Positions 17,390-30,196 of a stretch of DNA of 32,000 bases are shown here, piece after piece. Under the pieces are notes generated by a model that made no database searches, was not told where the DNA came from, and was given only the letters and a program-made list of their open reading frames with translations. A program made the translations under genes and the position numbers. Within the stretch, counting starts at the first letter, position 1; every line of letters begins with the position of its first letter. The stretch comes from Candidatus Heimdallarchaeota archaeon (GTDB taxonomy: Archaea > Asgardarchaeota > Heimdallarchaeia > Heimdallarchaeales > Kariarchaeaceae): contig JASBSB010000001.1 in NCBI GenBank assembly GCA_030149205.1, positions 360,001 through 392,000 of the forward strand, read 5' to 3'.

Positions 17390-18574
17390 ATGCAAGAAGA
17401 AATTGCAGTTGTTGGGGCTGGAGTAACAAAGTTCGGAAAAAGGTTTGATGTTTCATATCGAGAATTGATGGCTGAGGCTGCTTCTGAAGCTATAAATAGC
17501 ATGGACAGGCCCATCACACCAAATCAAATTCAAGGACTTTATGTTGCAGCCTCAATTCCTGAGTTGACTGTGGATCAAGCTCATGTGGCTAACCTCGCTG
17601 CTCAAGAGCTAGGTTTAGAACCAGAAATAATAGCTAGAGTTGAAATGGCATGTAGTTCTGGATCAACAGCTATAAGAAATGCCTGGGCTGCAATTAAGTC
17701 TGGTTTAATTGATACTGCCCTTGTAGTGGGTTTAGAAAAAATGTATGCAAACACTCAGGCTGCGAACCATGGGCTATGCATTGTCCCAGATGTAACATAT
17801 GAGGCAACAAATGGAATTACTGCCTATTCTGGATTTGCTTTAATTGCACAGGAACATATGAAATTATACGGGACAACAAGAGATCAACTATCTTCGGTTT
17901 CAGTTAAGAACCATTCAAACGGTGCGAAAAATCCTAAGGCTCAATTTTTTGAGAAGGGAGAAATTACACTTGAAGAGGCAAAATCTGCGAGAATGGTATC
18001 AGACCCTTTGAATTTATATGACTGCTCTCCAATAACGGATGGAGGAGCTGCTGTTATTCTAACTCGTGGATCATTAACAACAAAATTTTCAGAACAACCG
18101 GTTTGGATCAAAGGGTCTGGCCAAAGTGTTGAACCATCTCTAGGAGTTTCTAATATGAAATCCTTAACTGAATGGACTGCTTTGAAACGAGCTGCACAGA
18201 AAGCCTATCAAACATCAGGAATTTCTCCCTCAGACATTGACGTGGCTGAAGTCCATGATTGTTTTACAATTGCGGAAATTATTGAGTATGAGGACTTAGG
18301 ATTTACCGCTAAGGGAACTGGAGGTAAATTTATTGAAGATGGTGAATCAGCTCTTTCTGGCTCTCTTCCCGTTAACACTTCAGGAGGGTTAAAAGCAAAG
18401 GGACATCCAATAGGTGCAACCGGTGTTGCACAAGTTGTTGAGATCACTGAACAACTTCAGGGAAAATCAGGAAAACGACAAGTTGATGGAGCTAATATCG
18501 GCCTAACTCATAATCTGTCAGGATTTGCAACTCATCATGTGGTTCATATCCTTTCCAATGAGGAGGCAAAATAA
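17390..18574 (+). CDS. Thiolase, SCP2/archaeal type (acetyl-CoA C-acyltransferase)
   Basis: Nucleophile 'EMACSSG', 'EVHDCF', 'KGHPIGATG' and C-terminal 'THNLSG'. Confidence 0.95.
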   Translation: MQEEIAVVGAGVTKFGKRFDVSYRELMAEAASEAINSMDRPITPNQIQGLYVAASIPELTVDQAHVANLAAQELGLEPEIIARVEMACSSGSTAIRNAWAAIKSGLIDTALVVGLEKMYANTQAANHGLCIVPDVTYEATNGITAYSGFALIAQEHMKLYGTTRDQLSSVSVKNHSNGAKNPKAQFFEKGEITLEEAKSARMVSDPLNLYDCSPITDGGAAVILTRGSLTTKFSEQPVWIKGSGQSVEPSLGVSNMKSLTEWTALKRAAQKAYQTSGISPSDIDVAEVHDCFTIAEIIEYEDLGFTAKGTGGKFIEDGESALSGSLPVNTSGGLKAKGHPIGATGVAQVVEITEQLQGKSGKRQVDGANIGLTHNLSGFATHHVVHILSNEEAK

Positions 18575-18984
18575 TGGGATCCAATACAATAACACATCTA
18601 CCATACAAAATCGAGAAAGGAACCAAAATTCAAAAATTCTGGGATGAACTCAACAATGACAACTTAATGACAACTAAATGTAAAAATTGTTCCGAGTTAC
18701 ATTTCCCACCACGTACGTTGTGCCCAAAATGCTATTCTACTAAAACAGAATGGGTACAGCTTGGTTTAAGTGGTAAGGTTGAAAGTTTCACCTATGTTAG
18801 AACACCCCCCTTAGGGTTCGAAAACCCCTTCTATCTCTTAGTAGTGAGATTGGAAGATTTAGATAAACCCATAACAGGGAGATATGTTGGTGACAAGGAC
18901 ATTTATATTGGTAAAAAAGTAGTAGTTGCGTTTGAACAGATTGAGAAACAAAATTTTCTGGTATTCAAAGAACAAGTAGATTAG
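18574..18984 (+). CDS. DUF35 / ChsH2-like Zn-ribbon OB-fold protein, thiolase partner
   Basis: 'KCKNCSELHFPPRTLCPKC', 'GKVESFT', OB-fold C-terminus. TAATG overlap with the thiolase and SD GAGGAGG. Confidence 0.92.
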   Translation: MGSNTITHLPYKIEKGTKIQKFWDELNNDNLMTTKCKNCSELHFPPRTLCPKCYSTKTEWVQLGLSGKVESFTYVRTPPLGFENPFYLLVVRLEDLDKPITGRYVGDKDIYIGKKVVVAFEQIEKQNFLVFKEQVD

Positions 18985-19551
18985 TTAAGGAAAACTTTCA
19001 TCACTTGTCGCAGACGTTATCATTTCTTGTACCAACCAATCAAACATAGAATCTACGCCATCACCTGTCTTTGCCGAGGTTTCAAAATATGAAAGTGGAC
19101 TATTGTTTAATATTTCATCCAATAGGGCTCTTACACCATCTAGGTTAGCTTCATTAACAATTCTTTTTTCAATTAGGTCAATCTTATTACCAACAAGTGC
19201 AATAGGAACTTTCCTGTTTATTACAATCTTCAGGATATCTTCTAACCACCACAGGGTGTTTTCAATATCAATCTCACGTGTAACATCGAGTACTAAAACA
19301 CATCCGGCAACTCCAGTAGTATAAGATTTTCGGATCTCTCGAAACTCCGCATCCCCAGCTAGATCCCATATGACCAGTTCAGCATCATATGAATCAGATT
19401 TTAATTTAACTGTCTTAATTTCAACCCCTAAGGTTTTCAGGTACTTTTCGTTAAAACTCTCACCCGAAATCATCCTTCTTAAAGAGGTTTTACCAACTCC
19501 TTGGTCTCCAAGTAACACGATTTTAAAGGCGAAAGAATTCTCATCAAGCAA
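18985..19551 (-). CDS. Rab/Ras-like small GTPase
   Basis: G1 GDQGVGKT, G2 T in 'YLKTLG', G3 WDLAG, G4 NKID, G5 ETSAK. No C-terminal Cys motif. TTG start. Confidence 0.92.
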   Translation of the reverse strand: MLDENSFAFKIVLLGDQGVGKTSLRRMISGESFNEKYLKTLGVEIKTVKLKSDSYDAELVIWDLAGDAEFREIRKSYTTGVAGCVLVLDVTREIDIENTLWWLEDILKIVINRKVPIALVGNKIDLIEKRIVNEANLDGVRALLDEILNNSPLSYFETSAKTGDGVDSMFDWLVQEMITSATSDESFP

Positions 19552-19704
19552 TTAAATTCAATCCTACTTGTCTGTTTTTCTTTAAATGTTTTGTGCATTT
19601 TCACACCAACTTAATCAATAATAGATTGTATTTTTCATTAGAGGCAATATAATATTTGCCAACCATAAGAAGAACCATTTATATATATTCTTTTTTTTGT
19701 TAAA

Positions 19705-20469
19705 TTGAACATGGACAAGGCGTCTCGCATCATTTTTTCAATTCTAAAGCTTCAAATGAAAAAAATTGCAATTGCTGGTCCCACAGGGGCAGGGAAAACC
19801 ACATTATTTAAATTGGTCTTTCCTTACAATGAGTACAACCTTAATGAGGTTGAAAGAAACATTACCAGGGAAGCTCTTTCAGAGATATCTATAACACAGA
19901 TTGAGGAGGATCAGTTTGAAAATTCGACAACTACTGTAAGTTTCAATGTAAGTAATGCAGTGGCATGTATTGACCTGGCTAATCGAATGAACATTTACGA
20001 GATGAAGAATGATCTAAATTTTCTCTTAGAAAATGATTTTGATTACATTCTTCCCATCCAAATTATTGATATTGCAGGTCAGGACAGGTTTAGATTCATG
20101 GTTGAAACCATGATAAGGGGATCTTCAGGAGTTATTTTTGTTGCAGATGGTACAAATGTATCCAGTATCAATAGACTTCCTGAATTTCGTGAAATTGTTC
20201 ATCAAGAAGAACTTCGAATTAACAGGAAAATTGAATCAATTGCCTTTGTAAACAAATCCGATATGGCAAAGAGAAATTTATATGTAGGAAGTGGCCCTGC
20301 GAGGTCAGCTCTTCCTGAAGATGTTGAGGTCTTTGAGACAACTATGTTTGATAAAGACACCTATCTCTATCCGATTAGAAAATTAATTGTCAAAATGTTT
20401 GAAAAACACCTTACAAGTGAAGACCTAAGAAATCATGTAAAGAAGATGTCTTCATTACAAAGAACTTAG
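19705..20469 (+). CDS. MglA/CvnD-like small GTPase with insertions around switch I
   Basis: G1 GPTGAGKT, 'STTTVSF' (compare TTTVAMDF), 'DIAGQDRFRFM...RGSSG' (compare GQxRFxFM...RGAxG), G4 NKSD. The true start may be Met3 or Met18. Confidence 0.8.
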   Translation: MNMDKASRIIFSILKLQMKKIAIAGPTGAGKTTLFKLVFPYNEYNLNEVERNITREALSEISITQIEEDQFENSTTTVSFNVSNAVACIDLANRMNIYEMKNDLNFLLENDFDYILPIQIIDIAGQDRFRFMVETMIRGSSGVIFVADGTNVSSINRLPEFREIVHQEELRINRKIESIAFVNKSDMAKRNLYVGSGPARSALPEDVEVFETTMFDKDTYLYPIRKLIVKMFEKHLTSEDLRNHVKKMSSLQRT

Positions 20470-21392: not shown

Positions 21393-22346
21393 TTATTTGG
21401 ATTTTTCTTTCTTTTTGTCCTCAGAAAACATACCTTGGTTTAACAGAAGTTTGAAGTCTTCAAATCCTAATTTTTCTCCGGACTCTATTTTTTTCTTGAT
21501 ATCAATTGCTCGTTCTTTTTCATTCCTCTTATTTTCTGCATCAATGAGCTCTCTTTCACGTCTTTTCTCCTTAGAGGTTTTCTCACCAATTTCTTTCCTG
21601 ATTCTATCTGCTTCTTTTGAGATTTCATTGATCTCATTTCTAATCTCTCTAATTTTCGTACTAATCTCTTGAATCTGTTGGTGTTCCTCATCAGCAATTT
21701 TCTTGATCTCAAAAGATTGTGCTTTCAATTCTAAAAACTTATTATGGTGATCCTGTGATTCCTGTGCAAGTTTGGTCAATTCCTTATGATATCCTCTTGC
21801 TGTACTGGAATGCATTCTTAGTTTCTCTCTTACAGCACGAATTTCATCTCTCTTTTCGTTTGCTACTGTTAACTGGTCGAGTTGTCTGTATAAATCTTCA
21901 ATTTCTGAAATTATCTCATTCTCTTCTTTGTTGTCTAGATTAGGTGAAATTTCTAGCTTGTTTTCAAGTTCATCTATACGTCTGCTGAGATATTTTGTTT
22001 TTCGATAACTATTGTTTGAACCTTTGGTTTCTCCTAGAGCTTCTTCAAGTTTGTCTAACTCAGCTTTTGCCTTAGCCACATCTTCCTTAGCCAGATCTCT
22101 CAAAGCTTTTTTTAGTTGGACCTCTTCGTTAATTTTGTCCCTTTCATCAAGATGTGTTCGAGCCTCTTTGTAATGGTCTCTAAACTCCTTGTTATGACCG
22201 TCTCTTTTCTCACGAAATTCGTTTCGTTCCTGTTCGAACTTTCTGACCTCAGTTATGAGGTTTTTCCGTTGATTACGTAACTCGTTGAGAGTCTCACGTT
22301 TTTCTTTCAAATCAGTTTTGTCCATTGTAACCGACAAATATTTCAC
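21393..22346 (-). CDS. Conserved archaeal coiled-coil protein (COG1340-type)
   Basis: E/K/R-rich heptads with the characteristic C-terminus 'AIDIKKKIESGEKLGFEDFKLL'. The start may be ATG 22325. Confidence 0.8.
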   Translation of the reverse strand: MKYLSVTMDKTDLKEKRETLNELRNQRKNLITEVRKFEQERNEFREKRDGHNKEFRDHYKEARTHLDERDKINEEVQLKKALRDLAKEDVAKAKAELDKLEEALGETKGSNNSYRKTKYLSRRIDELENKLEISPNLDNKEENEIISEIEDLYRQLDQLTVANEKRDEIRAVREKLRMHSSTARGYHKELTKLAQESQDHHNKFLELKAQSFEIKKIADEEHQQIQEISTKIREIRNEINEISKEADRIRKEIGEKTSKEKRRERELIDAENKRNEKERAIDIKKKIESGEKLGFEDFKLLLNQGMFSEDKKKEKSK

Positions 22347-22483
22347 CTATAATAAATACAAGAGAGACCAGAGTATAAATACCTTAAAGAAGATGGTCAC
22401 TCAATTTTAGATACGTACTTTTCTATAATTCAATGATTATAAATAAGTCGATAGTTCACAATACAGTTTTTAGAATGTGTTGT

Positions 22484-23785
22484 TTAAGGAGATATTCTGT
22501 TGATTGTACGAGGATATAATGTGGTGTCTCTGATATGTTCAAGATTCAGAACCCATTGAACAAATCTTTCCAATCCTAGTCCAAATCCACTATGTGGAAC
22601 TGAACCATACCGTCTTAGGTCAAGATACCAATAATAGTCATCTTGATCCACCGGTGGATCCATTTTGTTCATTCGATCTTTCATGCTCTCTAAATCAGTT
22701 TCTCGTTCACCACAACCAATAACCTCACCTAGGTTTGGAAAAATAAAATCAGCAGAATTTGTAACTTCTGGTTTTTCTAAGTTGATTTTGTGGTAGAAAG
22801 GTTTCATACTGACAGGAAACTGTTCTAATATTATCGGAACACCAAAATGGTTAACCAATTCCCTCTCAGGGGCATCAGATATATCTTCTCCAAATTTAAC
22901 AGTAATTCCTTTCATCTGTAAAATTTCGAGCGCCTCTGAATACGAAACCCTTGGAAATGGTTTTTGTGGGACTTTTAAGTCAATCTCAAAAAAATCTAAT
23001 ATCTCTTGATCATTCTGTTTAACTTTATTTAAAACAAAAATTATAAGATCCTCCAAGTATTCCTTAAGACCTGCAAAATCCATAAATGCATACTCCCCTT
23101 CAATATGTGTGTATTCAGTCAAATGTCTTCTTGTTCTACTTTTCTCAGCTCTAAATGAGGGTAAGATACAAAATACGTCACGCAATGAAAAAATCGCCGT
23201 CTCTAAATATAGTTGTGATGATTGTGTAAGGTAGGCTTTGTCTTTAAAATATTTAATTTCAAACAGTTCTGAACCTCCTTCAGCTTGAGCTTCTACAATT
23301 GTTGGAGGTGTTACCTCTTCAGCATTTCTTGAATAAAAAAACTCTCTAAAATATTGGACGATATGTGACCTTAATCTTAGAATTGCTGAGGTTTTTGGTC
23401 CTCTAATGACCAAGTGTCTCTTGTTCAGTTGTGTTTCAATTCCAGCTCCCTCAGGCAATAGTTGATCGTAATCCTCAGTTGATGTGTCAAATATCTCGAG
23501 CTCGACCACTGACATTTCCATGTTATATTTAGCCCGGGGGTCTTCTTTCACTTTACCTGTGGCTTTTAATGATGCTCCTCTGTATAGATTTTTTAATGAG
23601 TCAAAATGAGGGCTTTTTAATGAATTCTTTTTTATGGTGAGTTGTAAAGTTTTGAAGGTGCTACCATCAAAAAACTCAATGAAAATCAATTTTCCCTGTG
23701 TTCTCTTCTGCCAGATCCAACCTTCAACACAGACTTCTCTTCCAAAATTTTCTGGAACATCATTTATTCTAACAATTGTGACCAC
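22484..23785 (-). CDS. asnS: Asparagine--tRNA ligase
   Basis: OB-fold anticodon domain, motif 2 'FRAEKSRTRRHLTEY', motif 3 'LRRYGSVPHSGFGLGLER' (AsnRS-type rather than AspRS). GTG start. Confidence 0.95.
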   Translation of the reverse strand: MVTIVRINDVPENFGREVCVEGWIWQKRTQGKLIFIEFFDGSTFKTLQLTIKKNSLKSPHFDSLKNLYRGASLKATGKVKEDPRAKYNMEMSVVELEIFDTSTEDYDQLLPEGAGIETQLNKRHLVIRGPKTSAILRLRSHIVQYFREFFYSRNAEEVTPPTIVEAQAEGGSELFEIKYFKDKAYLTQSSQLYLETAIFSLRDVFCILPSFRAEKSRTRRHLTEYTHIEGEYAFMDFAGLKEYLEDLIIFVLNKVKQNDQEILDFFEIDLKVPQKPFPRVSYSEALEILQMKGITVKFGEDISDAPERELVNHFGVPIILEQFPVSMKPFYHKINLEKPEVTNSADFIFPNLGEVIGCGERETDLESMKDRMNKMDPPVDQDDYYWYLDLRRYGSVPHSGFGLGLERFVQWVLNLEHIRDTTLYPRTINRISP

Positions 23786-23816
23786 TGTAAATCATTCTAG
23801 TTATAATTTTCTTTTT

Positions 23817-23825
23817 AAAAAAAAA
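23817..23825 (-). terminator. Oligo-T (T9) archaeal-type terminator candidate downstream of the DPM2-like gene
   Basis: A9 run on the + strand, 10 nt after the stop at 23836. Confidence 0.35.
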
Positions 23826-23835
23826 TTGTTGTCGA

Positions 23836-24132
23836 TTACGATGTTTCTGCGGATTCAGTTTCAACTTCTTCTGTTGCTTTCTGTAAATCTTCCTCTGTCC
23901 ATTCAACTGGTGGAGGAGTGGTAATAAGGGTAAGACCAATCCATCCCATTATTCCAAACACAACCAGAATCATCAGAAACACTGGGATTGTAATAGCATA
24001 CATGAACACCACATCATTTAATTTTGATGGAAACATGGCAGGATATGCTAGTAGATAATAGATTTCAAAGATTATTGCAAAAAGACTGATGAGGGAAATG
24101 ATTACACCAATTAACTTATCTGTGCTTGCCAT
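23836..24132 (-). CDS. Two-TM small membrane protein resembling eukaryotic DPM2
   Basis: 98 aa. 'TDKLIG...SL...YP...YAITIP' has the same spacing as human DPM2 recalled from memory. Followed by TPPP and an acidic tail. Confidence 0.65.
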   Translation of the reverse strand: MASTDKLIGVIISLISLFAIIFEIYYLLAYPAMFPSKLNDVVFMYAITIPVFLMILVVFGIMGWIGLTLITTPPPVEWTEEDLQKATEEVETESAETS

Positions 24133-24150
24133 TGATTCTAAATCATAGAT

Positions 24151-24168
24151 AGGTTAAATAACCTTTCG
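24151..24168 (-). promoter_or_regulatory. BRE-TATA promoter candidate for the DPM2-like gene
   Basis: Minus strand reads CGAAAgg-TTATTTAA, 21 nt before the ATG. The TATA lies within the inverted repeat AGGTTA-N2-TAACCT. Confidence 0.45.
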
Positions 24169-24198
24169 TCAATTTCTTTCGTAAATTGTCAAAGATTT

Positions 24199-25524
24199 TT
24201 AAGAATCCATGATTTCCAAGATTGTATCTACACATCTTATTATAAGTTCTGAACCATCAATGTGAGGCACACTGTTTTTCGAACAATATTCTATTAAACG
24301 AGTTGTATTATTAACCAAGGGGATATCTATTATTAAACTCACTTTATCCAGATATTTTTTTGGAACTGGCAAGATATTTGGGAGATCACCTTCTCCGAAT
24401 GGAACACAATTAAATATCAAATCAAAATCTATGGACTCACTTGGATCTATTGGCTCTACTTTAGGAAAAAAGGAATTAATCACTTCGATTTTTTGAAAGT
24501 TTCGATTTCTTACTCTAATCAAAGATGATCCGGGGTAGGAAACTGCAACCAGAGATGAAACGACAGAATTAAGACCCTCGATATACACATTAAAGAATTT
24601 CTCAAGAGAGTATTCTTTAAGGATTTTTTGAAAGGTTAGATAATAGATATCATAAGCCTTCCAAACTCCTCCTATATGTCTAATGAGACTAATATTTTTT
24701 GAGATGCTTACTGAGCTATCAAATTCTTCTACAAAAGGATATAATTCCGATTGAAATGGAGGAAAAACGAACAAACTGTTAATATACGTAGATTTAAACA
24801 CAGGAAATGCACGTGTAAATTCAATGATATTATTCAATTCTAGGACAGTAAACTTAATGGAATCACCATTTAGAACATCAAATACTTTTACTGCTTGAAT
24901 TTTTTGTCCTTTTCGTGTGAGAACCAATGTATTAAGGTTATATACTGATAAGTCCTCTCTTTGATCCGAAAAGAAATTGTTTAGATCATCTCCACAAAAC
25001 AAGGAGAAGATTTCTTTTAAATCACCTTCCACAAATATATGGTAATCTTGGTTTGTACTATTGAGCTTTTTTACCCAATTATAAATTTCAAGAAGGTCAG
25101 TTATTGAGTTAGGGTGAACTATTATCTTTGCTACGAAAGTCCCAAGTGATTTCTTCAAATCGATTATACTCTCAAAATCTATTTTTGCTATACCCTCATA
25201 ATCTACAAAGACAACGATTGGTATCGACCCATTTTCTAAAAGGGTCATAGAAAGTAAATCATAAGGGTACAGAAACTCAATGTAGTGGGGATGCAAGTCA
25301 ACGATCTTCTTCAAAAGTCTGATACGCATATCTAAAGAGCCAAATTCTGACCAATAAGGTAGTGTCAATAAATATTTTTGATTAGTCTTTTCGTTGATTT
25401 CATTTAACAATCCACTGGAGAGGACGAACTCATTAACCTCAAACCTTTTAATTTTATTAGAGTCAAAGGACGATGATAAAAAATCCTGAATATTATCAAA
25501 ATTGATAATCTCGGGTTTCTTCAT
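24199..25524 (-). CDS. Degenerate type I 3-dehydroquinase / shikimate dehydrogenase (AroD-AroE) fusion-like protein
   Basis: N-half 'GTFVAKIIVHPNSITDLLEI' matches AroD GADIPKIAVMPQS. C-half 'VRNRNFQK', 'DLIFNCVPFG' and 'TTRLIEYCSKNSVPHIDGSEL' match the AroE Rossmann domain. Most catalytic residues are substituted. Confidence 0.7.
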   Translation of the reverse strand: MKKPEIINFDNIQDFLSSSFDSNKIKRFEVNEFVLSSGLLNEINEKTNQKYLLTLPYWSEFGSLDMRIRLLKKIVDLHPHYIEFLYPYDLLSMTLLENGSIPIVVFVDYEGIAKIDFESIIDLKKSLGTFVAKIIVHPNSITDLLEIYNWVKKLNSTNQDYHIFVEGDLKEIFSLFCGDDLNNFFSDQREDLSVYNLNTLVLTRKGQKIQAVKVFDVLNGDSIKFTVLELNNIIEFTRAFPVFKSTYINSLFVFPPFQSELYPFVEEFDSSVSISKNISLIRHIGGVWKAYDIYYLTFQKILKEYSLEKFFNVYIEGLNSVVSSLVAVSYPGSSLIRVRNRNFQKIEVINSFFPKVEPIDPSESIDFDLIFNCVPFGEGDLPNILPVPKKYLDKVSLIIDIPLVNNTTRLIEYCSKNSVPHIDGSELIIRCVDTILEIMDS

Positions 25525-25622
25525 CTAAAATATCAAAGTATTGGTTATATTTAATTATTATTACCGGTTCAAATATATCTTGCAAGTGTACAATACTGTT
25601 TTTAAATCTCCTTTTCTCCAAA

Positions 25623-26438
25623 TTAGATCTGAATTAACTGCAAGAATGGAATTAAAATTGAACCCCAAAGTAACCATATAACATAGGCTAACCAGAAGTA
25701 AACAATTCCTGGTATCTGAGCTCTCACCCAAACAAATTCTCTCTTGGTTAGAATTGAGGATGAATGAACGCTCTGTCTTAGTTCCTTCTCTTTTTGCTCT
25801 AATACTTCATCTTCCTCATTATACACAAACAATTGCTTTGTAGAAACCCATTCATTGTCTACAAATTCTTCTGCGGGATCTAGAAAACTGGTTGAAGAAA
25901 GCTTTTTTGGATCTACTTGAAATGCTGTTACTAAAAATGTGATTTTCGTAAAAATTGAGAGCCGGTGTTCGTTTATGAACCACTTTCTGAATTTAAAATA
26001 ATTGAATATATTCAATATAAAAATAGGAACAATTGTTAAAACTAAGCCAAAAATAAAATTTGCAAGGATCAGGAAAAGTGGAATCAAGGCAAAGGCTAGA
26101 GGAATTGTCATTGGGATAAAAGAGAAAATTACTGGGCTAGAGAAACTCAGAGCAATTAATGCTTTTGAATCACCACCACCCCATATACCCATGGAATAAA
26201 ATAAGAATCCAAGAATAAGACCTGAGGCAAAATTAATTAGAATCCCAAAAAGTTCTAAAAAAGAGTAGGGTTGTAGAATCCCACAGACTGTAACCACCAG
26301 TAATCCTGAAATTCCTTGAGTTAACCACACCAGATTACTAGTGTAGCGGGTTTTGATATCTTGATAGGCCCCTATTGATAACGCGACTAAAGTAATAATA
26401 ACTAAAATAAATTGACAGCTAAGATCCATGAATTGCAC
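25623..26438 (-). CDS. A24 family prepilin/preflagellin peptidase (FlaK/PibD-like)
   Basis: Catalytic Asp motifs 'AYQDIKTR' and 'GIWGGGDSKAL', FlaK-type C-terminal 'VWVRAQIP', multiple TMs. The start may be ATG 26429. Confidence 0.88.
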   Translation of the reverse strand: MQFMDLSCQFILVIITLVALSIGAYQDIKTRYTSNLVWLTQGISGLLVVTVCGILQPYSFLELFGILINFASGLILGFLFYSMGIWGGGDSKALIALSFSSPVIFSFIPMTIPLAFALIPLFLILANFIFGLVLTIVPIFILNIFNYFKFRKWFINEHRLSIFTKITFLVTAFQVDPKKLSSTSFLDPAEEFVDNEWVSTKQLFVYNEEDEVLEQKEKELRQSVHSSSILTKREFVWVRAQIPGIVYFWLAYVIWLLWGSILIPFLQLIQI

Positions 26439-26444
26439 TTTTCC

Positions 26445-27923
26445 TTATCGTGTATAGAAAATTTGAGAATTAATTTTATGAAGTGTTTTTAACACCTCAC
26501 ATGTTATTGCTATATCATTGTTCCATGAACCATTACTTTCTTGCTGTGCTCCAAGAAAATATACAGCATATTTCACAACATCTCTCTCGACTGAATCATT
26601 ATGGATTACACTCCTTAAACAAAGTGCAGTAGCATAGACAGAATTATCCCAGCCTCCTTCAATTCCTTGTTGGTTTCTAATGTACTCCTTCACCTTTTCT
26701 AACCTGGTCTCGATTCTCAATTCTGTGTCTGAAAAGCTCGGTAGGTCAAATGCAAAACCTTCATCTTTACTTGGCTTAATTTCTACTATTGGCTCGTTAT
26801 CTGTAGTCATCTCGATTAATGAGTTAAACAATAAGCCCAAAAATAGGTTTGAGATATTTTCTTCTTGAGCAGTTACATTAAATCTGGTGATAGAGCGATT
26901 CAAAACAATATTAAATGTGTTTGCGATAATATCCGCCAGAAGTTGTGCTGGTTCCATTTGACCTAATAATTTGTAGATAGGTCCAAGAACGGGAATGTAG
27001 GGAAGTTTTCCTGAGGCAAGAAATTCTTTGGATTGAATTTCATTTACAAAATCCCACTCGCTAAAATCAAACATTAATTTGGTAATTTCAGCCAGCTGTT
27101 CGTCATTAAAAGCAGCATTCTTAGGATCTACATTCAAAATGAAAAGCAATGGAATTAGTTTCTCGTATGTTGGTTCAATATCTATTTTCTCAATAACATC
27201 TAACACTAGATAGTAGATCTGCTCAAATGTTCGTGTTTCCTGTTCTCCGTTAACAATCTGAGTCCATGAGTAGCTGAGCGGTTTTTTCAAATCCACAAAA
27301 AGTCTACCTACCTCAGATGTTTCATAAAGAGGGTTTTTCTCACCCCAAGTACCAGATGTATCTTGCTTGCTGAACAGCCACTTTTCAGCCCTCTGGATCA
27401 ACTCATCAATTTTCAAATCTGACAAAGGTATTCTCTTAAGCTCTTCTTTAATGTCTTTGAACTGACTGATGAGGTGGGTAGTTTCACTTTTACTTTGGGA
27501 ATTAAGCAGAAAATATCCGGCAGCAATAACCGTGGACATGATATTAACAAAATAAAGTAATGATAACAATTCGAGATTTTGAGTGTTATTTGTTTGAAGT
27601 CCAATACTAAATAGAAATGTACTTACTGCCCCTGTAAGTAATAAAATTGCTACAACCCTGTTTTTTATTGAAAAAAACATCCCAAACTTAAAAAATTCAT
27701 CTAGGAAGGTTAACAATAATAAGATTATTACAAAATATTCAAAGTAAAGTGCATAAAATGGCAATCCAACCAACTCACCCTTGCTTCCCAAAGAATTAAC
27801 CATTGATTGAGTTATTACCAGATTAAACCCCACTGTAACAACAAGATAAATTATTTCTAGACTCTCTATAGTCCGTTTTCTTGAATAATTTAAGACTTTG
27901 CTATAGCTTTCGTTACCACTCAT
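26445..27923 (-). CDS. Membrane-anchored protein with prenyltransferase/squalene-cyclase-like QW repeats
   Basis: About 4 N-terminal TMs, then repeats 'WLFSKQDTSGTW' (W193), 'YIRNQQGIEGGW' (W425) and 'FLGAQQESNGSW' (W467). Confidence 0.7.
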   Translation of the reverse strand: MSGNESYSKVLNYSRKRTIESLEIIYLVVTVGFNLVITQSMVNSLGSKGELVGLPFYALYFEYFVIILLLLTFLDEFFKFGMFFSIKNRVVAILLLTGAVSTFLFSIGLQTNNTQNLELLSLLYFVNIMSTVIAAGYFLLNSQSKSETTHLISQFKDIKEELKRIPLSDLKIDELIQRAEKWLFSKQDTSGTWGEKNPLYETSEVGRLFVDLKKPLSYSWTQIVNGEQETRTFEQIYYLVLDVIEKIDIEPTYEKLIPLLFILNVDPKNAAFNDEQLAEITKLMFDFSEWDFVNEIQSKEFLASGKLPYIPVLGPIYKLLGQMEPAQLLADIIANTFNIVLNRSITRFNVTAQEENISNLFLGLLFNSLIEMTTDNEPIVEIKPSKDEGFAFDLPSFSDTELRIETRLEKVKEYIRNQQGIEGGWDNSVYATALCLRSVIHNDSVERDVVKYAVYFLGAQQESNGSWNNDIAITCEVLKTLHKINSQIFYTR

Positions 27924-28004
27924 GGATATCTTAAGTATAGGTTCTCCTTAGAACTTAAAAAAATATGCTGATAAAACGCTTATATTGTAAAGTTTCAAAA
28001 ATAT

Positions 28005-28373
28005 TCAATACGGAAACAAGACAGCAATTAACAATAAAATTAAGCTAATTCCTACTCTCACCAAGAAATCTCTTCGTAATTTAGCCTTTAATGTACTAGC
28101 ATCTTCGGTAGATGTGTTTTCGTTACTCAGTATTCTTAGATCTCTTCTCATAGAAAAGAGAATGCCTGCAATAAAGACTGGAAAAATCAGCAATGACATA
28201 TTACCAGGAGTTTGTTTTATCTTAAAGCCAATAGTAAGAGCAAACTCTATAAGAAAAACAAAAAGCAGACCGAGAGAGATCTTATCTACCAGCTTAACAG
28301 GTTCTGAGGTCTTTTTATACTCACCCCAAACTTGCGATAACAATTTTCGTGCATTGAATCCTTGTGTTGACAT
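28005..28373 (-). CDS. Three-TM small membrane protein resembling oligosaccharyltransferase subunit DAD1/Ost2
   Basis: 122 aa. 'EY...KLVD...EF...PGN...LRI..N...DFL' parallels DAD1 'EY...KLLD...QF...PFN...LRI..N...DFL' recalled from memory. Confidence 0.6.
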   Translation of the reverse strand: MSTQGFNARKLLSQVWGEYKKTSEPVKLVDKISLGLLFVFLIEFALTIGFKIKQTPGNMSLLIFPVFIAGILFSMRRDLRILSNENTSTEDASTLKAKLRRDFLVRVGISLILLLIAVLFPY

Positions 28374-28435
28374 AATTCCTAAGTGGATAAAATCCTTGTG
28401 CTAAATAAGAATTCCTACAAATACATAAAATATGA

Positions 28436-28744
28436 TTAAACTACTCGAAAAACTTCATATCTTTTGGCTCGAGGTCTATTCATTACCGCGACTTTTTTGC
28501 ATGTAGGGCACGTTATACGCAAATCAATTTTTTTACTGGTCTTACTTGCCATCTTTGTCTGGGTTACTGGTTTCTTGGAGTAACGACCAAGGTTTCCATG
28601 GCCTCGTCTCCTGTGTTTCTGCCTTCTGTGACTCCAGTTTAAACCACCAGACCTTCTTCCACCTTTTTCCTGCTTAACCTTTCCCTCTACATGGGTGTTA
28701 CATTTTCTACAATACATTTTGATTTTATCTGGTAATCTTGCCAT
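28436..28744 (-). CDS. rpl44e: 50S ribosomal protein L44e (eL42)
   Basis: 'YCRKCNTH', 'RRRGHGNLGRYSK', 'KTSKKIDLRITCPTCKK'. ATG 28744 is preferred over the track's GTG 28753. Confidence 0.95.
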   Translation of the reverse strand: MARLPDKIKMYCRKCNTHVEGKVKQEKGGRRSGGLNWSHRRQKHRRRGHGNLGRYSKKPVTQTKMASKTSKKIDLRITCPTCKKVAVMNRPRAKRYEVFRVV

Positions 28745-28822
28745 AAATACCACTTAGATTATAACAAATTTAAAGAAAGGATTTAATTAAAAGTGTCGAT
28801 ACGTTCACCCAGGAAAATTGGA

Positions 28823-29809: not shown

Positions 29810-30196
29810 TCAGTGAGAGTTAATCATTTTCGTCCCCGTTGATTCAAAATATGCGTCTAAATAGGGTCTTGCTGGATGCTTAGCTGAGATTCCAATTTCA
29901 TCCAAAGATTCTTTCATTAATTTAACCCACTGGTCTCGAGCTTCTTTGTTAATTTTGAATGGAAAGTGACGCCTCCGAAGCATAGGATGACCTCTTTTTT
30001 GTTCATATTCTCTAGGACCTCCGAATCTCTGAATCAGAAATAAGGCTTGAAGTTCTTTTCCTTCTTCTAAATCTTCTGGGAACAATGGTCTTAAAACCTG
30101 ATCATTTTCGACCTTTCCATAAAAAACTTCAACAAGTTCGTAAAATTTTCCAGAACCTCCAATAAGGGAATATATCTCTTTATCTGATGCTAGCAT
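29810..30196 (-). CDS. Group II truncated haemoglobin (trHbO / GlbO / YjbI-like)
   Basis: 'YSLIGG', 'FY..V..D..LRPLFP', 'FLIQRFGGP..Y...RGHPMLRRRH', 'ARDQW'; proximal His in 'RRRH'. Confidence 0.93.
   Translation of the reverse strand: MLASDKEIYSLIGGSGKFYELVEVFYGKVENDQVLRPLFPEDLEEGKELQALFLIQRFGGPREYEQKRGHPMLRRRHFPFKINKEARDQWVKLMKESLDEIGISAKHPARPYLDAYFESTGTKMINSH

Follow-up and report, generated by a model that had tools for sequence, protein, structure and literature searches.

A Kariarchaeaceae AroD-AroE paralogue that keeps both folds and is probably a pseudoenzyme under purifying selection

Introduction

Bifunctional proteins in which a type I 3-dehydroquinate dehydratase (DHQase, AroD) is joined to a shikimate dehydrogenase (SDH, AroE) are known from plants (DHQ-SDH; PDB 2GPT, 2O7Q and 2O7S) and, as AroD-AroE fusions, from archaea and bacteria. 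The fusions listed in one paper belong to Methanofastidiosa, Methanomassiliicoccales, Planctomycetes and Acidobacteria only, the first two being its archaeal groups (PMC11237513). An AroD-AroE fusion is now shown in an Asgard family. Here a paralogue of such a fusion, P0001, is described from Candidatus Heimdallarchaeota archaeon (assembly GCA_030149205.1). It is encoded in a stretch of 32,000 nucleotides of contig JASBSB010000001.1 (positions 360,001 to 392,000 of the forward strand), referred to below as the window. The two folds of the bifunctional enzymes are both present in P0001 and follow each other in the same way, but it lacks the DHQase His, the Lys/Asp dyad, the GxGG loop and the Ser-x-Ser, Asn, Tyr and Gln ligands, scores under the family cut-offs and lies outside the aro operon.

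The SDH fold is also found in the SdhL, YdiB, Ael1 and RifI classes. These are dehydrogenases dependent on NAD(P), in which the Lys/Asp pair and the glycine-rich loop are both preserved. The paralogue family of P0001 has this fold in common with them (SdhL is HI0607, PDB 1NPY), but has lost both the pair and the loop. Dead paralogues that activate live partners are an established pattern. The prozymes resemble the present case in that a dead duplicate is retained under selection beside a live paralogue in the same genome; the analogy is one of mechanism only.

A natural precedent exists for the DHQase half. The DHQase domain of Candida albicans Aro1 (PDB 7TBV, 7U5U) carries active-site substitutions, including one at the catalytic His position, and shows no detectable activity in vitro; a type II DHQase compensates for it (PMC9074039). 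This precedent supports reading the residue losses in P0001 as a loss of activity. Both are natural type I domains with a substitution at the His position, their activity being covered by another enzyme. However, the Aro1 domain is the one dead domain of five in an otherwise active, essential multi-enzyme and is compensated by a type II enzyme, whereas P0001 is a stand-alone paralogue apparently dead in both domains, for which an intact type I copy of the same fusion would compensate. In the literature library covered, neither a search for dead shikimate dehydrogenases nor one for Asgard shikimate paralogues turned up a description of the family. With a probability of roughly 0.7, P0001 is a conserved, soluble pseudoenzyme: an AroD-AroE paralogue that keeps both folds, carries out neither ancestral reaction and is held under strong purifying selection.

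Results

P0001 keeps both folds of the bifunctional enzyme

The gene consists of 441 codons and a TAA stop.

24199..25524, minus strand: whole gene of the 441-amino-acid AroD-AroE-like paralogue P0001, from the open reading frame (ORF) list and the translation (stop at 24199-24201)

At the base composition of the window (G+C ~33%) a random open frame of this length has a chance of ~7e-15. The initial annotation, made from the letters of the sequence, had argued from the intact frame that the gene is under selection, and this agrees with the purifying selection described below. The highest Kyte-Doolittle mean over 19 residues is 1.4, and P0001 is thus predicted to have no membrane segment.

Homology is weak when P0001 is used as a single sequence. 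The Pfam DHquinase_I model (PF01487) matches residues 48-158 at E 0.01 (16.4 bits, under the cut-off of 22.2) and the NCBIfam aroE model (TIGR00507) matches residues 235-429 at E 2e-8 (33.7 bits, under the cut-off of 200.2). No match to an SDH domain (PF08501, PF01488) was returned by the Pfam scan. Both of the degenerate domains noticed in the initial annotation therefore fall below the cut-offs and could not have been recognised at a routine annotation threshold. A word-indexed protein search returned the query alone, so an exhaustive HMMER search was needed. Among 1.84 billion representatives it found 12 full-length relatives (462-501 amino acids, E 8e-47 to 2e-15), after which ordinary shikimate dehydrogenases of ~270 amino acids were ranked.

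At the level of the family the homology is strong. An alignment of 19 paralogue sequences (A2) served as a profile, and its best sequence-profile match was Arabidopsis DHQ-SDH (PDB 2GPT), covered in both halves at E 1.7e-34; HI0607 was matched at E 2e-27 and stand-alone type I dehydroquinases at ~5e-14. Pfam DHquinase_I matches 15 of the 19 members at E 0.01 or lower (best: 6e-30), and the Pfam SDH domain is recognised in 3-4 of them.

An AlphaFold2 model of P0001 built with A2 as input has a mean predicted local distance difference test score (pLDDT) of 77. Residues 1-36 and 186-221 are poorly predicted and the C-terminal half reaches ~90. The single-sequence model (pLDDT 34) was unusable. 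A Foldseek search with the A2-based model placed 2GPT at the top (E 1.7e-16, 479 columns). In VIA the best single-domain structural match was HI0607 (Z 21.2, root-mean-square deviation (rmsd) 2.8 A, 226 residues), and 2O7Q was level with the single-domain SDH chains (Z 20.4, 408 residues). The VIA match list is filled by SDH-domain entries, with Z 19-21 to more than 30 SDH-family entries, the best at rmsd 2.7-3.5 A over 215-230 residues; many AroE/YdiB chains are among them, at Z 19-20. The predicted C-terminal half thus has the two-domain SDH fold. The HMMER and structural alignments to 2GPT and 2O7Q place a dehydroquinase-like domain N-terminal to an SDH-like one in a single chain, in the order of the plant bifunctional enzyme, and the earlier proposal of a TIM barrel plus SDH is upheld by the A2 profile, Foldseek and VIA. 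The two halves are as follows:

24955..25524, minus strand: AroD-like (type I dehydroquinase-like barrel) half, residues ~1-190, from DHquinase_I and the HMMER alignment to 2GPT (residues 1-36 poorly predicted)

24202..24894, minus strand: AroE-like (shikimate dehydrogenase fold) half, residues ~211-441, from NCBIfam aroE (E 2e-8) and VIA (Z 21.2 to HI0607)

Catalytic residues are lost in both halves

Residues were checked in an L-INS-i alignment of the 19 paralogues, 9 canonical fusions of the same family and 4 other AroD-AroE fusions, cross-read against the HMMER alignment to 2GPT. Two features of the AroD-like half stand out:

25183..25206, minus strand: lost catalytic His position V107, then the paralogue-specific motif D108-x-x-G111-x-x-K114, from the alignment

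25126..25128, minus strand: K133, at which the Schiff-base lysine has been retained, from the alignment (same column as the catalytic Lys of 2GPT)

The catalytic His (His143 equivalent) is present in 13/13 canonical fusions and in 0/19 paralogues. The initial annotation had read the SNHDF motif as FVDYE; the absence of the His stands, but the register was off by one, the His column being V107 and not D108, which aligns with the canonical Asp/Asn that follows the catalytic His. The Schiff-base Lys, which we take to be Lys170 in Salmonella/E. coli numbering, is found in all 13 canonical fusions and in 18 of the 19 paralogues, and both the 2GPT and the 13-fusion alignments agree with the earlier assignment of this role to K133. 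The arginines of ExR, TxR and SR are kept in 12/12 to 13/13 canonical fusions and in 0/5 members of the window's own clade. In P0001 these positions read E29-V-N31 (Glu kept), T-L-P56 and F-S174, with N31, P56 and S174 standing in the three Arg columns, as in the initial annotation (EWR to EVN, TFR to TLP, SRL to FSL).

In the AroE-like half, the positions to note are the following:

24751..24753, minus strand: Q258 at the catalytic Lys of NVTxPxK, from the alignment

24643..24645, minus strand: Y294 at the catalytic Asp of NTD, from the alignment

24562..24576, minus strand: G317-L-N-S-V in place of the GAGGA dinucleotide-binding loop (first Gly kept in 18/19, preceding Y-I-E conserved)

24502..24510, minus strand: R339-N340-R341, in which a new Arg, invariant in the family, stands before the canonical NR that is still present, from the alignment

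The catalytic Lys and the catalytic Asp are each present in 13/13 canonical fusions and in a single paralogue (P0013) of the 19. The GAGG(A)/GxGG NADP loop of the canonical fusions is reduced to its first Gly in the paralogues, and the HSxSP loop, likewise present in the canonical fusions, is found in none of the 19. The Asn of xNT is kept in 13/13 canonical fusions and 10/19 paralogues (S279 in P0001), the Tyr in 11/13 and 0/19 (L403), and the C-terminal Gln in 13/13 and 0/19 (C431). The NR pair, which contacts the 2'-phosphate, is found in 11/13 canonical fusions and in 9/19 paralogues, including all five of the window's own clade (N340-R341 in P0001), and R339 is invariant in 19/19 paralogues. 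The changes listed for this half in the initial annotation all hold in the alignment: NVTxPxK has become FVFPPFQ, ending in Q258, GAVNT has become KNISL, with S279 at the Asn, NTDG has become DIYY, so that NTD reads D-I-Y294, GAGGA has become GLNSV from G317 on, the terminal Gln is C431, and the NADP-binding NR is kept. A salt bridge between R339 and E316, the conserved Glu in front of G317, could form in what was the dinucleotide cleft.

Three independent alignments agree on the absence of the catalytic His, of the Lys/Asp pair of the SDH site, of the NADP loop and of the substrate ligands. The barrel half is left without its general acid/base His and, in the window's genus, also without the Arg residues that hold dehydroquinate, and the Rossmann half lacks its catalytic pair, its substrate-binding residues and its glycine-rich NADP loop. 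These patterns suggest that both ancestral activities were lost.

A live canonical copy lies in an aro operon

The initial annotation had seen no other aro gene in the window. Pfam scans agree; they covered the 27 remaining ORFs with 100 or more amino acids and a 98-amino-acid DPM2-like ORF. The search for an intact aroD/aroE elsewhere, which it had proposed, was successful: an archaeal-type aro operon lies on the same contig ~600 kb from the window (G000:C4:983650-988137, locus L036; G000 is the window's genome). This operon looks complete, with ADH synthase, 3-dehydroquinate synthase II, an AroD-AroE fusion, archaeal shikimate kinase and EPSP synthase. The canonical fusion in it (G000:C4:985150-986637) is 496 amino acids long, scores 230 bits against the aroE model (above the cut-off of 200) and has all motifs intact. 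The chemistry of the pathway would be done by this copy.

In public databases (NCBI, IMG) relatives of P0001 are named 'type I 3-dehydroquinate dehydratase' or 'shikimate dehydrogenase/dehydroquinate dehydratase'. The names imply that the protein still works as a dehydroquinase, a shikimate dehydrogenase or both, by means of an atypical active site, and the DHquinase_I matches of 15 of the 19 members are consistent with them. Because of the residues missing from all three alignments, the scores of P0001 far under the curated cut-offs and the presence of the canonical copy, this is very improbable. Such annotation matters in practice, since metabolic reconstructions of the Heimdall group could mistake a non-enzyme for a step of the pathway or for a second isozyme.

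The paralogue family is confined to Kariarchaeaceae

A maximum-likelihood tree (LG+C20 PMSF) was built from the 19 paralogues, 9 canonical Kariarchaeaceae fusions and 4 other AroD-AroE fusions. The paralogues and the canonical Kariarchaeaceae fusions are each monophyletic (100/100 in both cases), and their joint split from the other four fusions is supported at 100/98. The paralogue family is therefore the sister of the Kariarchaeaceae's own canonical fusions, as would be expected if the fusion was duplicated in the Kariarchaeaceae ancestor or earlier. The exact timing of the duplication is not secure because the outgroup is small and the branches are long.

Whole-genome searches found orthologues in all 11 other sampled genomes of the family (Kariarchaeaceae, Heimdallarchaeota, according to the names on the relatives' proteins; f1 below), which represent six genera, and in 0/29 genomes of three sister families. 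The existence of orthologues had been one of the points on which the initial annotation was to be judged. With the family profile, 12/12 f1 genomes reach 407 bits or more, and elsewhere among 400 Asgard genomes nothing exceeds 142 bits; the matches outside f1 are mostly separate aroD and aroE genes. Across the same 400 genomes both halves in one frame occur almost only in f1, and elsewhere the frames are mostly separate and 230-310 amino acids long. Shikimate_dh_N (PF08501) was detected in 0/25 genomes of f2, a sister family with two closed, single-contig genomes among these 25, and in 0/3 of f4; these two families may lack the shikimate pathway.

Within its genus, G000 is a deep branch. P0001 shares 25-30% amino-acid identity with the same-genus orthologues and synonymous sites are saturated. 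High divergence from the listed congeners G001-G003 extends to housekeeping proteins: the canonical AroD-AroE of G000 is 37-40% identical to theirs, and its QW protein 41-45%. Because G000 branches deep in its genus, protein collections contain no close relative of P0001. A search of JGI metagenomes with an own-genus alignment (A3) found no relative, and a search with alignment A4 found seven loci, among them the L046/L047 pair used below.

One role that would make use of the live copy is that of a prozyme-type regulator, in which the dead paralogue would hetero-oligomerise with the live AroD-AroE through its dehydroquinase-like domain and tune its activity or stability. The paralogue occurs only in a family in which the canonical fusion, to which it is sister in the phylogeny, is also present, and in C. 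albicans Aro1 it is the DHQase domain that mediates the homodimer (PMC9074039). However, the two genes lie ~600 kb apart and are never adjacent in the examined contigs, and their co-occurrence is expected by descent alone. We regard such a regulator as unlikely.

Purifying selection argues against decay

The contrast between selection and decay was to be decided by dN/dS (the ratio of non-synonymous to synonymous rates), as the initial annotation had suggested. L046 and L047 are metagenome contigs carrying co-linear orthologues of another genus that are 92% identical. Their Nei-Gojobori dN/dS is 0.116 (43 non-synonymous, 88 synonymous differences), with 0.10 for the AroD-like and 0.13 for the AroE-like half; the neighbouring genes of the same pair range from 0.01 to 0.40. 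For the window gene itself the comparison was with X2, a hydrothermal-vent metagenome run from a different study, whose contigs, from a near-identical strain, are ~95-97% identical over three pieces of the gene. The X2 pieces hold 51 differences in the gene, and of the 26 that are listed, being the best supported, 25 are synonymous and one is non-synonymous (the conservative R69K). Since the listing keeps the best-supported differences, no bias towards synonymous changes is to be expected from it. In the A2 alignment P0001 has every residue that is invariant in the family, and 10 of the 11 other f1 genomes have an intact copy.

Some signs would fit a decaying gene, a young pseudogene with no function. 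P0001 sits on the longest branch of the family and has deletions relative to its orthologues, and the orthologue of one genome (G009) has in-frame stops. The 25 synonymous changes among the 26 listed strain differences already refute decay, and the 441-codon frame, open in a genome of 33% G+C against a chance of ~7e-15, the retained invariant residues and the intact copies elsewhere in f1 point the same way. Decay is therefore extremely improbable.

Constraint is concentrated on the barrel

A2 has 12 invariant columns. Nine of them are barrel residues between positions 67 and 167 (R67, P87, D89, D108, G111, K114, I134, P138 and G167), where the near-invariant K133 is also found, and the AroE-like half contributes only D269, R339 and D400. 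Several of the nine barrel invariants are shared with the canonical enzyme by inheritance, whereas G111 and K114 are new. D108, G111 and K114 are invariant in 19/19 paralogues, and D-x-x-G-x-x-K, directly after the lost His, is a motif specific to the paralogues. Mean pairwise identity, calculated over the same genome pairs without G000, is 0.31 for the AroD-like half of the paralogues and 0.34 for that of the canonical copies; for the AroE-like half the values are 0.26 and 0.38. Constraint is thus weaker on the AroE-like half, and conservation is highest on the face of the barrel that surrounds K133. Together with the Pfam recognition, the barrel invariants and the identities of the two halves suggest that the selected function lies on the former active-site face of the barrel. 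We take the Rossmann half to be a structurally preserved module that is probably chemically dead.

This pattern could also be produced by a neofunctionalised enzyme that uses K133 for Schiff-base chemistry with a carbonyl substrate new to it, in which D108, K114 or D89 would stand in for the His and the Rossmann half would act as a non-redox accessory. K133 is kept in 18/19 paralogues, the invariant D108, G111 and K114 lie at the strand's catalytic end, just past the position of the lost His, the AroD-like half is nearly as constrained as in the canonical copies and selection is strong. However, the window's own clade has none of the three Arg residues that bind the carboxylate and hydroxyls of the substrate, in the one natural case tested losing the His is by itself enough to abolish activity (PMC9074039), and no conserved metabolic neighbour gene points to a pathway. 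A new enzyme of this kind is rather unlikely, somewhat less so than a prozyme-type regulator.

Weighing the pseudoenzyme interpretation

That P0001 is a pseudoenzyme dead in both domains, as the initial annotation had proposed, is supported by the lost residues, the live paralogue and the purifying selection. Our verdict is that the paralogues form a real, previously undescribed pseudoenzyme family.

Several observations weigh against this interpretation or limit it. P0001 retains the Schiff-base K133, and 13-14 of the 14 paralogues outside the window's genus keep the whole Glu/Arg/Arg/Arg substrate-binding set. Because of these retained residues, the ancestral paralogue may still have bound, or slowly turned over, dehydroquinate-like compounds. 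D108 or K114 may serve as a replacement base. P0013 retains both the SDH Lys and Asp. P0001 is also the fastest-evolving member of the family: its end branch measures 1.81, where that of its own canonical partner measures 0.84 and the median is 0.65, and its linker and the N-terminal region of its SDH are shortened compared with its relatives. Statements made for the family may therefore hold less well for P0001 itself. The synonymous excess to X2 was counted on the 26 best-supported of 51 differences. Finally, the G009 orthologue, from a 63%-complete metagenome-assembled genome, has two in-frame stops, which reflect either a local loss (pseudogene) or an assembly error. They are a TGA and a TAA six codons apart in the interdomain linker (L034:722-2188, contig C77).

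If P0001 is a pseudoenzyme, its most likely role is to bind something at the remodelled, lysine-centred pocket of the barrel. This suggestion comes from the conservation of the former active-site face (D89, D108-x-x-G111-x-x-K114, K133, G167), and what is bound could be a small carbonyl or acid compound or else another protein. In that case the dead Rossmann domain would be structural or oligomerisation ballast. The options first offered for P0001 (scaffold, sensor or enzyme with a new substrate) stay open and are narrowed by the pattern of constraint only. Tentatively, the family may have been rebuilt, with K133 and D108-x-x-G-x-x-K114 binding or covalently processing a ligand other than dehydroquinate, or else with the paralogue as a prozyme-type subunit controlling flux through the live AroD-AroE. 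Either would be a lineage-specific regulatory or catalytic invention of Kariarchaeaceae made from a shikimate-pathway fusion.

The finding touches no long-standing open question. Its interest is that of a clean natural case, in which a bifunctional fusion was duplicated, both activities were apparently lost, selection is as strong as on the neighbouring genes and a live copy is available for comparison. The losses are also graded: the residues that bind dehydroquinate are still present in most genera, the SDH Lys/Asp in one member, and in the window's genus little more than the lysine. With the live copy, this series makes the family well suited to studying which function selection maintains in a pseudoenzyme.

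Gene neighbourhood and other features of the window

The gene for P0001 lies in a block (window 21393-28753) with the order L44e, Ost2/DAD1-like, QW-repeat membrane protein, A24 peptidase, AroDE-like, DPM2-like, DUF7121 coiled-coil protein and asparaginyl-tRNA synthetase (AsnRS). The block is found in most contigs of the six genera and in further metagenome contigs (loci L025-L035, L046, L049-L051). Its genes are mostly co-directional and the gap between A24 and the paralogue is 26-102 nucleotides. In three same-genus genomes (G001-G003) a penicillin amidase gene stands between A24 and the paralogue, and a gene for a flavin-dependent reductase follows it in place of the DPM2-like gene. QW and A24 are missing from the block in two contigs.

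The conserved order, kept in six genera and the metagenome contigs, with mostly co-directional genes and the short A24 gap, could suggest that P0001 is a cytoplasmic accessory of the neighbouring membrane-protein genes (Ost2/DAD1-like, QW-repeat, A24 and DPM2-like) with a role in glycosylation or protein maturation. However, the block also includes the unrelated housekeeping genes AsnRS, L44e and thiolase, the Ost2-QW-A24 trio is adjacent in other families of the order that have no paralogue, and the DPM2-like gene is order-wide (39/41 genomes). The penicillin amidase insertion, the replacement of the DPM2-like gene and the two contigs without QW and A24 also count against an accessory role, which is quite improbable. 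As the block spans unrelated housekeeping genes, inherited synteny is the simpler reading, and the association with membrane and glycosylation-type genes looks inherited. No functional lead emerged from the neighbours, which are heterogeneous (AsnRS, L44e, DUF7121, thiolase/DUF35 and, in relatives, penicillin amidase).

Two candidate leads were discarded. Co-occurrence with the DPM2-like gene was rejected because that gene is order-wide. An A+T-rich TATA-like element ~25-35 nucleotides upstream of the ATG of the P0001 gene is no evidence for a promoter, because the genome is 33% G+C.

Some further observations were made on the genes of the block. The penicillin amidase family (Ntn hydrolase) gene encodes 825 amino acids at L026:6099-8573 in G001, has the same position in G002 and G003 and is absent from the window. 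In contig Ga0114931_10000905 (L046) the A24 peptidase gene (L046:5158-5949) has one in-frame stop and the DUF7121 gene (L046:7823-8737) has three; both genes are intact in L047, and the AroDE-like gene between them is intact in both contigs. The QW-repeat (squalene-cyclase-like) membrane protein (window 26445-27923, minus strand) is found in 38/41 genomes of the order, usually with the A24 peptidase directly after it. A preprint from 2025-26 on Asgard diterpenoid cyclases (10.1101/2025.02.07.637177) reportedly mentions Kariarchaeaceae.

Three more features lie at 17390-18984 (plus strand) and at 18985-20469 and 29810-30196 (minus strand) of the window: a thiolase and DUF35/ChsH2-like pair of the archaeal acetoacetyl-CoA thiolase type, a head-to-head pair of Ras/Rab-like and MglA-like GTPases, and a truncated bacterial-like globin.

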